Virus record (IMG/VR): IMGVR_UViG_2850796239_000010
Origin: a virus
Lineage: Duplodnaviria; Heunggongvirae; Uroviricota; Caudoviricetes
DNA: 16,705 nucleotides
Reading direction: 5' to 3' (one strand)
Below the pieces are notes generated by a model that did no database searches, had not been told where the DNA came from, and worked only from the letters and a program-made list of their open reading frames with translations. Each line of letters starts with the position of its first letter. Positions within the stretch are counted from its first letter, which is position 1. Both the position numbers and the translations under genes were made by a program. Shown one piece after another: positions 7,379 to 10,199 of the stretch.

Positions 7379-7799
7379 TTAAACGCTCGCCACGTTATAC
7401 CAGGTACCATTAATCAGTTTTTGCAGCGGTCGGTAATACACACCGTCAACGTTATCCGCTGAGTTACGGTGGGTATCCGATATCTTTACCCCTGACAGCC
7501 CGTGTCCCGAAGGTGCGCGAAATGTCCACGAAACGGTGTTACTGCCGGGGCCGTAATACATTTCATGGCCATATCGCACATCCTGTACCCCCTCAGTTCG
7601 ATGTTTATAGCGGGCATCGAAGTTTCCGTAATTTAACGGAATTACCTGTCCGTTTACGGCGAACGTGATGCTGTTATCTGTATTCCTCTGGCTGAAAAAA
7701 TGCCAGCCTGAATCATCACCAAGCTCTGCAACAACAGGCCTGGATGGATTACCCCACAAATAAAACGCTGCATTTTTCGTGGAGTTGTTGGCGCTGGAT
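7379..7799 (-). pseudogene. 3' fragment of a phage tail fibre gene interrupted by IS600 (native C-terminal 139 codons)
   Basis: The six-frame ORF 7379-7825 begins inside IS600 (MSVKLRLPQ is IS-derived); the remainder SSANNSTKNAAF...GTWYNVASV is in frame with the 5' fragment at 9064-10199 once the IS and one copy of the 3-bp duplication are removed. Confidence 0.7.
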
Positions 7800-7863
7800 T
7801 GAGGTAGCCTGAGTTTAACGGACACTCCTTCCTGAAATAGAATGGCATCAGAAGGAGCTAATA

Positions 7864-8166
7864 ATGAGCAGAAAAACCCAACGTTACTCTAAAGAGTTCA
7901 AAGCCGAAGCTGTCAGAACGGTTCTTGAAAATCAACTTTCGATCAGTGAAGGCGCTTCCCGATTATCCCTTCCTGAAGGCACTTTAGGACAATGGGTTAC
8001 CGCCGCCAGAAAAGGGCTCAGTACTCCTGGTTCCCGCACGGTGGCTGAACTGGAATCTGAAATTCTGCAACTGCGTAAGGCGTTAAATGAAGCTCGCCTT
8101 GAGCGAGATATATTAAAAAAAGCAACAGCGTATTTTGCACAGGAGTCGCTGAAAAATACGCGTTAA
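7864..8166 (+). CDS. IS600 OrfA
   Basis: 100-aa ORF identical to the copy-1 OrfA except Gly to Ser at residue 52; A7 slippery site at 8115-8121. Confidence 0.9.
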   Translation: MSRKTQRYSKEFKAEAVRTVLENQLSISEGASRLSLPEGTLGQWVTAARKGLSTPGSRTVAELESEILQLRKALNEARLERDILKKATAYFAQESLKNTR

Positions 8167-8201
8167 TCGAACAATGGCGACAACAATTTCCCATTGAAGC
8201 G

Positions 8202-9020
8202 ATGTGTCAGGTATTTGGTGTATCCAGGAGCGGTTATTACAACTGGGTACAGCATGAACCCTCAGACAGAAAACAAAGTGATGAGCGGCTAAAACTGGAG
8301 ATTAAGGTGGCACATATCCGCACTCGCGAAACATATGGAACCCGGCGGCTCCAGACGGAGCTGGCAGAGAATGGCATCATCGTTGGTCGTGACCGACTGG
8401 CACGTCTTCGTAAGGAGCTAAGGCTACGCTGTAAGCAGAAACGCAAGTTCAGAGCGACTACGAACCCGAACCACAATCTGCCAGTTGCGCCAAATCTGCT
8501 GAACCAGACGTTCGCTCCTACAGCACCAAATCAGGTCTGGGTGGCGGACCTGACGTATGTTGCCACACAGGAGGGATGGTTGTACCTCGCTGGCATCAAA
8601 GATGTTTATACGTGCGAAATTGTCGGCTACGCCATGGGAGAGCGCATGACAAAAGAGCTGACAGGTAAAGCCCTGTTTATGGCGCTCAGGAGCCAGCGCC
8701 CACCTGCCGGGCTAATCCACCACTCTGATCGAGGTTCACAGTACTGCGCATACGATTACCGGGTCATACAGGAGCAGTTTGGTCTGAAAACATCAATGTC
8801 GCGTAAAGGTAACTGTTACGACAACGCTCCGATGGAAAGCTTCTGGGGAACGCTGAAAAATGAGAGCCTGAGCCACTATCGTTTTAATAACCGGGATGAA
8901 GCCATCTCAGTAATACGGGAATACATTGAGATTTTCTACAATCGTCAGCGTCGTCACTCTCGTCTGGGGAATATCTCCCCGGCAGCCTTCAGGGAAAAAT
9001 ATCATCAGATGGCTGCTTAA
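8202..9020 (+). CDS. IS600 OrfB
   Basis: 272-aa ORF identical to copy-1 OrfB. Confidence 0.9.
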   Translation: MCQVFGVSRSGYYNWVQHEPSDRKQSDERLKLEIKVAHIRTRETYGTRRLQTELAENGIIVGRDRLARLRKELRLRCKQKRKFRATTNPNHNLPVAPNLLNQTFAPTAPNQVWVADLTYVATQEGWLYLAGIKDVYTCEIVGYAMGERMTKELTGKALFMALRSQRPPAGLIHHSDRGSQYCAYDYRVIQEQFGLKTSMSRKGNCYDNAPMESFWGTLKNESLSHYRFNNRDEAISVIREYIEIFYNRQRRHSRLGNISPAAFREKYHQMAA

Positions 9021-9063
9021 AAAAAGAACAAATGGTAGTGTCCGCTATTGCCAGTACACCTCA

Positions 9064-10199
9064 GATAACGTGAATTTTTTAGCATTTCCGGCCTGAATAT
9101 TTTTTAACGCTATCGCCACACCATTCTGGAAACGAAATACATGCTGTCCATTCGCATAAACATCCAGAATGCCGTCGCCGTTTTGTTTTATACCTGTATC
9201 GTTATCCCCGAAAGCAATTGAGTTTCCGCCCAGGGCGTTCTGAACGCCGATACCCAGCGCACCATTGACCTGCGAACCACCGCCAACAGACACTTTATGC
9301 GACATGGATATTTCACCCGTCCGCAAATTAATGGTGAACGGGCGCAGGGGGCCAATATCGCCATTCTCGCCCTGACCTTCACTGGTAGGGATAAGGTGCA
9401 GGCACTCTTCCGAACGACGAAAAATCAGACCAAATGCTTCGTTGAAAATCCTCAGCGCATTAACACCACGGATTTTCAGCTCCCCGGTCATCAAATCACC
9501 AGATTTTTTTACATATCGCAGATCAAAATCTGAATAGATATTGCCGGGGTTTATCACGCTGAAATAGCTTTTCTCGCTATCAAGAAGGCAAATAAAAGGA
9601 ATACCCTTAATGATATCATTCGCCACCAGCTCGGACTTGTTCCCCTTATAAAGTGGGAGCGTACCAAGAACCTTTCCGCCTAGTGTTAGTTGAAGTGTCG
9701 CCGCGTTGGTATTGTTCTGAACGGGGAAAACGATAATCGGGGTTCGTAGCGTCCAATCTGTACCCTCATTAACAAAAAACGTCGAGGGAAGTTCCAGCGT
9801 CAGTGTGTTTGCAGTGCCACCAGCAACACCCGCAATATAATGACCGCTCTGAAGCTGCGCTATCTGTACGAAATAGTTTTCCGATCCACGCGTGGCAAAG
9901 TTAGCCACAACGTCATTAAGGGACCAACCTTTCGCGGTTGTTCCTTCCTGCCCACGAATGACTTTCAGCACATCACCGCTTACCGATACCAGGTGACAAA
10001 TCTCAAATGCAGACTCTTTATTATCGGTAAGCGTAATTTTTGCATAGACGCGTTGCCCGTTCGATTTATTTTCAAAATCGGCAGAAAGCAATTTTGCAAA
10101 TTTAGCTCCCGTGCCCGGCATCACCGGAATATCAGTCTGAATCGTCGTAATATCACCAGCCAGTGCTGAAACAACGTTATTTCCGAATCCAAGAATCAT
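9064..10199 (-). pseudogene. 5' fragment of the phage tail fibre gene interrupted by IS600 (native N-terminal 378 codons)
   Basis: The six-frame ORF 9045-10199 runs into IS600; its last residues and stop (S-EVYWQ*) are encoded by the IS terminus. Glycine-rich tail-fibre-like sequence, positioned after the baseplate genes. Confidence 0.7.

Follow-up and report, generated by a model that had tools for sequence, protein, structure and literature searches.

The window analysed here is a stretch of 16,705 nucleotides (nt), IMG/VR record IMGVR_UViG_2850796239_000010, whose reverse complement was found to match chromosomal sequence from Shigella boydii ATCC 9905 (CP026875.1) at 100% identity. It holds three copies of the insertion sequence (IS) IS600, and the second of these, referred to as copy 2, lies within a prophage tail fibre gene on the minus strand. 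The gene is present as two fragments. The 5' fragment (9067-10199, minus strand) comprises gene nt 1-1133, that is, codons 1-378 less one base, and the 3' fragment (7379-7799, minus strand) comprises gene nt 1134-1554, which specify residues 379-517 and the stop codon. As found, the 5' open reading frame (ORF) extends from 10199 to 9045 and encodes 384 amino acids, the last six of which, SEVYWQ, are read from the IS before a stop codon is reached. The 3' ORF (7379-7825) encodes 148 amino acids and its first nine residues are IS-derived. The ATG of the fibre gene overlaps the stop codon of the upstream gene (ATGA), as it does in E. coli W. The 384-residue product is identical to EFW53446.1, deposited as 'putative tail fiber protein', and in an exact look-up among approximately 15 billion proteins this sequence occurred on two contigs and no others, each belonging to S. 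boydii ATCC 9905.

Copy 2 occupies positions 7800-9063 on the plus strand, so that it points the other way from the tail fibre gene, and is a complete IS3-family element of 1264 bp. Its left terminus is TGAGGTAGCC and its right terminus is GTACACCTCA, the outermost bases being TGAGGT...ACCTCA, which gives the element TG...CA ends. The terminal inverted repeats are imperfect, with 19 of the 27 outermost positions inverted-complementary. Two intact genes were identified on the plus strand. The first, orfA (7864-8166), encodes 100 amino acids with an HTH_Tnp_1 domain at 2e-20; the second, orfB (8202-9020), encodes 272 amino acids counted from the first ATG, with an rve integrase core and a DDE transposase domain (Pfam rve, 3e-26; NCBIfam IS3 family transposase, transpos_IS3, 8e-100). 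Frame arithmetic on the sequence placed orfB at -1 relative to orfA, and a slippery A7G run at 8115-8122, in phase with orfB, is the predicted frameshift site that would join the two.

The assignment of copy 2 was based on the features of the IS3 family, namely a length of about 1.2-1.3 kb with TG...CA imperfect inverted repeats, orfA and orfB in frames 0 and -1 and a poly-A slippery site, together with comparison to a reference IS600. The reference was the element annotated by PGAP as 'IS3-like element IS600 family transposase' in E. coli O121 201805972 (WP_085948186.1), and copy 2 was 99.84% identical to it over 1264 bp, with 2 mismatches and 0 gaps. The ends, the ORF pair and the near-identity to the reference thus all identified copy 2 as IS600. 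Known IS600, which is described as amplified in Shigella, enteroinvasive E. coli (EIEC) and E. coli that produces Shiga toxin (STEC), has the same length, the same orfA/orfB layout, the same poly-A frameshift site, the same TG...CA ends and the same 3-bp target duplication. The sole difference reported for copy 2 is a Gly53Ser change in OrfA relative to the other two copies in the window. Copies 1 and 3 share one and the same sequence across 1264 bp, and copy 2 differs from them at a single base, position 8020, where A replaces G; the change is non-synonymous, residue 53 being Ser (AGT, 8020-8022) in copy 2 and Gly (GGT) in copies 1 and 3.

A simple transposition of IS600 should leave identical 3-bp direct repeats at the two ends of the element, and the flanks should be contiguous in an uninterrupted relative. 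Both features were found for copy 2, with the empty site supplied by a relative outside the same lineage. A perfect 3-bp direct repeat brackets the element, GAT at 7797-7799 on the left and GAT at 9064-9066 on the right (ATC on the gene strand); two 3-mers would agree by chance with a probability of 1/64. For comparison, the flanks of copy 1 are TCC/TCC and those of copy 3 show no duplication. On the gene strand the boundary from gene to IS reads AAATTCACGTTATC followed by TGAGGTGTACTGGC, and the sequence around the target is AAATTCACGTT-ATC-CAGCGCC. The target ATC corresponds to gene nt 1134-1136, so that the interruption follows residue 378.

When the element and one GAT (7800-9066) were deleted in silico, minus-strand 10199 to 9067 was joined to 7799 to 7379. 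The rejoined ORF, on the minus strand from 10199 to 7379, is 1554 nt long and has 517 codons and a stop codon with zero internal stops, and the protein across the reconstructed junction reads ...AKKFTL-SSANNSTKNAAF.... The sequence-only reading of this locus had described a clean IS600 insertion at 7800-9063 that splits the fibre gene, and had proposed that excision of the element with one GAT would restore an in-frame ORF of about 517 codons. The coordinates, the GAT flanks, the junction sequence and the restored frame were all recovered as described. Apart from the insertion, the fibre gene is undamaged.

That reading had also proposed alignment to tail fibre proteins as a check, the failure of the reconstructed ORF to align as one continuous protein to any homologue being the outcome that would count against it. 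In 49 complete E. coli genomes, E. coli W and strain C7 among them, an intact gene aligned with the reconstructed 1554 nt over their full length and without gaps, at approximately 93% nucleotide identity. The reconstructed protein was identical at 487 of 517 residues, with 0 gaps (94% at the amino acid level), to the 517-residue representative of a cluster annotated 'phage tail protein' (P0001). Intact fibres of the same length that align without gaps are found in E. coli W (WP_000600270.1) and E. coli strain C7 (WP_077898319.1), where the neighbourhood is also the same: baseplate J, a gene of 208 codons, the fibre gene, tfa, a second fibre gene and DUF4376. The ORF thus does align as a single continuous protein, and the outcome that would have counted against the reading did not occur.

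The identity of the protein was examined by profile and structure searches. The reconstructed ORF matched the tail fibre families phrog_6859 (3e-118) and phrog_454 (3e-106), and residues 416-516 matched the tail fibre protein S of phage Mu (PDB 5YVQ, E = 7e-16); further PDB matches were to T4 gp34 segments (4UXE and 5NXF) and to a short tail fibre (9CUY). The NCBIfam search returned no family for the fibre protein, and the only Pfam match, Gp34_trimer, was sub-threshold, so the identification rests on the PHROGs, the PDB matches and the gene context. Taken together, the homology indicates that the reconstructed ORF would encode a tail fibre with a Tfa-type chaperone, of the class that includes Mu S/U, P2 H/G and lambda Stf/Tfa. 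The C-terminal receptor-binding region is homologous to that of Mu S, whose chaperone is U (5YVQ), and a gene for a Caudo_TAP chaperone follows the fibre gene in the window. The N-terminal two thirds of the fibre, in contrast, are unrelated in sequence to Mu S and, unlike Mu S, the gene has no invertible segment beside it in the window. The 3' fragment encodes this putative receptor-binding tip, a relative of Mu protein S, and shares 99.8% identity with the C-terminal ends of tail fibre genes in the ipaH islands of EIEC-like E. coli.

Comparison with these relatives revealed that the gene is a mosaic, a feature absent from the sequence-only reading. Its identity to the E. coli W and C7 genes is 99% as far as nt 1160 but only about 80% from nt 1161, a segment that corresponds to the C-terminal 130 residues. 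Relative to the fibre genes of two other ipaH islands (L003 and L004) the pattern is reversed, with approximately 87% identity over nt 970-1121 and 99.8% over nt 1122-1554. The sites that distinguish the two types and bracket the IS are nt 1121, the last upstream, and nt 1161, the first downstream. The switch from the E. coli W/C7 type to the ipaH-island type therefore falls within nt 1122-1160, a 39-nt interval (window approximately 7773-7799 and 9067-9078) that also takes in the insertion point. No stretch of perfect identity between the two parental types in the homologous region is longer than this 39-nt block, which, for that reason, is the expected site of an ordinary homologous exchange.

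A gene that serves as the empty site was found in E. coli FDAARGOS_944 (L008, 9000-9244), where 245 nt are 100% identical to nt 979-1223 of the reconstructed gene. This gene is intact, encodes 402 amino acids and lies in a Mu-like ipaHe island; at the insertion point ATC is present once and there is no IS. Its haplotype combines W-type bases at nt 1115, 1119 and 1121 with island-type bases at nt 1161-1176. Since this combination is uninterrupted, the crossover junction exists independently of the IS. A junction-spanning query of 311 nt, searched against 5,426 complete E. coli genomes, gave a best match of 96.5%, also in FDAARGOS_944. In the phage collection, partial matches only were obtained, to Rac-SA53 (nt 1-1079, 95%) and phiP27 (nt 709-1079), neither of which informs the junction.

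Exchange of the C-terminal part is routine in these fibre genes, because the fibre genes that follow the identical 208-residue gene in other genomes vary from 447 to 517 amino acids. The fibre gene of the window can be described as a three-way patchwork of a W/C7 segment (nt 1-1160), an FDAARGOS_944-identical segment (nt 979-1223) and an ipaH-island segment (nt 1122-1554). Identity falls again just past the fibre stop codon, within tfa. The conserved 39-nt block with the IS target resembles a module-exchange linker. On the sequence evidence, the mosaic structure does not overturn the reading of the locus as a simple insertion.

The arrangement is very probably the result of a simple transposition in which IS600 entered the tail fibre gene belonging to a prophage of myovirus type, beside pphA in S. 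boydii ATCC 9905. A single event would have placed a complete 1264-bp copy in the gene and duplicated the 3-bp target ATC, which lies between gene nt 1133 and 1137. The protein would thereby have been cut past residue 378, just upstream of the Mu S-like receptor-binding tip. The predicted outcome is a 384-residue N-terminal product with a six-residue IS-encoded tail and a promoterless C-terminal remnant of 139 codons.

Several observations weigh against this account. The insertion point lies inside the 39-nt crossover interval, which a random insertion into 1554 nt would hit in only about 2.5% of cases. The exact reconstructed protein of 517 amino acids was not present in the collection of approximately 15 billion proteins, and the full-length mosaic allele was found in no complete E. 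coli genome, the best matches being 93-94% identical; we therefore infer an intact ancestor that was not itself observed. Copy 2 is not a fresh copy of copy 1 or copy 3, since it differs from them by one non-synonymous change.

The position of the IS at the crossover raised the possibility that the element is itself the recombination junction. In that case the W/C7-type 5' part and the ipaH-island 3' part, with its downstream module, would have been joined by homologous recombination between two IS600 copies, or a gene-conversion tract would have ended at the IS because the element interrupts homology, and an intact ORF of 517 codons would never have existed. The location of the insertion between the distinguishing sites at nt 1121 and nt 1161 is what such a joint predicts. 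Copy 3, close by, has no target duplication and non-contiguous IS911 flanks, indicating that an IS-associated rearrangement did occur in the vicinity, and paralogous ipaH islands in Shigella and EIEC, with near-identical fibre C-termini, tfa and ipaH modules, are possible partners. However, to leave perfect repeats and a gap-free, in-frame restoration, such a recombination demands that IS600 was inserted at the same nucleotide in both partners. Moreover, the haplotype to either side of the junction is shared by FDAARGOS_944, in 245 identical nt without an IS; the 39-nt block is where an ordinary crossover would be expected; and the variable fibre lengths of 447-517 amino acids indicate that mosaicism is normal at this position. 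An IS-mediated chimera was consequently considered unlikely and was rejected as the principal explanation, on the grounds of the uninterrupted junction haplotype and the extent of parental identity in the 39-nt block. It is very doubtful, too, that the coincidence of the IS600 site with the crossover block is anything other than chance, although two ways can be imagined in which it might not be: the conserved linker that joins the shaft to the exchangeable receptor-binding tip may be a preferred IS600 target, or a lodged IS may act as a portable boundary between homology and heterology that shapes module exchange between ipaH prophages.

An assembly artefact was also considered, in which the repeated IS600 was set between fragments that in the chromosome itself lie apart or have no interruption. 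An older draft contig from the same strain, AERN01000093, lends some weight to this idea, as it runs from the 3' fragment past the IS into a paralogous DUF4376-ipaH segment instead of the 5' fragment, which shows that this assembly was misled by repeats. The complete chromosome CP026875.1, however, shows exactly the arrangement of the window, and an independent draft contig, AERN01000084, passes straight from the 5' fragment to the end of the IS, at the identical nucleotide. AERN01000093 itself covers the join of the 3' fragment with the opposite IS end, so that each junction is present in two assemblies. Misassembly, moreover, would not be expected to create a matching 3-bp duplication. An artefact is thus extremely improbable. 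In AERN01000093.1 (1607-4598), the segment past IS600 is 99% identical to window positions 3709-5441; this join probably arose by repeat collapse in the assembly, although an alternative IS600-mediated arrangement could also account for it.

Relative to C7, nt 1-1160 of the fibre gene contain 17 synonymous and 6 non-synonymous codon differences, and downstream of the insertion there is one change relative to the ipaH-island allele of L003. Because the codon differences are mostly synonymous, there is no sign of a long period of neutral decay. The perfect target duplication, the lack of any other stop codon or frameshift, the near-identity of the IS copies and the strain-restricted truncated product are all consistent with a young insertion. 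The earlier description of the event as probably recent is thus plausible, although none of these features supplies a date. Substitution rates of 6-9e-7 per site per year are quoted for Shigella (PMC7373316) and, as a rough estimate with these values, the fact that 1.5 kb carry no second lesion bounds the age only to roughly thousands of years. We infer that the insertion postdates the recombination that gave rise to the mosaic C-terminus.

The genes around the fibre gene follow the tail gene order of intact prophages: baseplate J, the 208-residue gene, the fibre gene, the Caudo_TAP chaperone, a second fibre gene (phage_tail_N) and DUF4376. Directly downstream of the split gene lies tfa (6849-7376, minus strand), which encodes a tail fibre assembly chaperone of 175 amino acids (Caudo_TAP, 1.4e-24; phrog_136, 6e-56). 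An alignment gap of 18 nt was observed in tfa with respect to relatives of 181-182 amino acids. An exact look-up of the Tfa protein, made in search of paralogous donor loci, returned only this locus and one draft contig of the same strain. The upstream baseplate-region gene (10196-10822, minus strand) is intact and encodes 208 amino acids (phrog_8212, 3e-119); the exact protein occurs in thousands of assemblies, always with a tail fibre gene after it.

The remainder of the tail operon is heavily damaged. Baseplate J is represented by a remnant at 10806-11707 (minus strand) that retains residues 111-408 of 408 (Pfam Baseplate_J), and blastp gave 99% identity to the J proteins of E. coli W and C7 over residues 111-408 only. 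The 5' end of J and everything upstream to the tape-measure region are replaced by an IS911 fragment (11695-11939), IS600 copy 3 (11940-13203, minus strand) and a second IS911 fragment (13204-13411). Copy 3 is flanked by CCA and GTT, and in an intact IS911 the pieces beside it (L003, 1532-1776 and 2021-2228) are separated by 244 nt. This arrangement points to an insertion of one IS into another, followed by deletion or recombination. Positions 13412-16705 match the small phage genes and the HNH endonuclease that intact E. coli prophages have ahead of the tape-measure gene, from which it follows that the block from the tape measure to baseplate J has been deleted. With J truncated and this block missing, the prophage is dead independently of copy 2. 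The sequence-only reading had regarded the IS as the sole inactivating event in the fibre gene; this holds for the ORF itself but does not extend to the tail operon, which was destroyed independently. Since the tape-measure/baseplate block and the first 110 codons of J are gone, the insertion may have struck an already useless gene and have had no phenotypic consequence.

At the other end of the prophage, ipaH (2941-4656, plus strand) is intact and encodes 571 amino acids with leucine-rich repeats (LRR) and a NEL E3 ligase domain (Pfam NEL, 7e-77; LRR_TTSS, 2e-18; NCBIfam IpaH_Shig, 5e-170, above the cutoff). It is carried as cargo, convergent to the tail genes, and has been kept intact while the surrounding phage structural genes are disrupted. 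IS600 copy 1 (1353-2616, plus strand), with its TCC/TCC duplication, lies where the prophage meets the chromosomal pphA side; chromosomal pphA occupies the window's left end. An ipaH-less prophage of the same type occupies the pphA site in an enterotoxigenic E. coli (ETEC) strain. The position of copy 1, just downstream of ipaH, almost coincides with the end of similarity to the ETEC pphA flank (window 1348). Chromosomal ipaH islands of Shigella and EIEC have the same terminal module in the same order (fibre, tfa, second fibre, DUF4376 and ipaH), with ipaH convergent. Their baseplate modules are unrelated to one another; the island in the window has the E. coli W-type module and adjoins pphA.

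The occurrence of ipaH genes on cryptic prophage islands is well known (PMC6424224). IS600 is one of five IS types that have expanded in Shigella, and a large share of Shigella pseudogenes arise by IS insertion (PMC7373316). A comparable case is lacZ of STEC O121:H19, where a single IS600 likewise lies in an otherwise intact gene and the disruption is in principle reversible by excision (PMC9397093). In that strain an IS-excision enhancer restores a selectable phenotype, whereas the fibre gene of the window lies in a dead prophage. The locus is therefore an ordinary example of an already known kind of IS gene disruption in Shigella, in a public annotated genome, and it is of little importance beyond annotation. 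In annotation, the ORFs at 9045-10199 and 7379-7825 belong together as a single tail fibre pseudogene disrupted by an IS, and the insertion is a possible marker for the strain S. boydii ATCC 9905 or its lineage. The locus also provides a clean example of the IS-driven decay of an ipaH prophage, in which the effector gene is intact and the structural genes have been dismantled, a pattern that fits the genome reduction of Shigella (PMC7373316).

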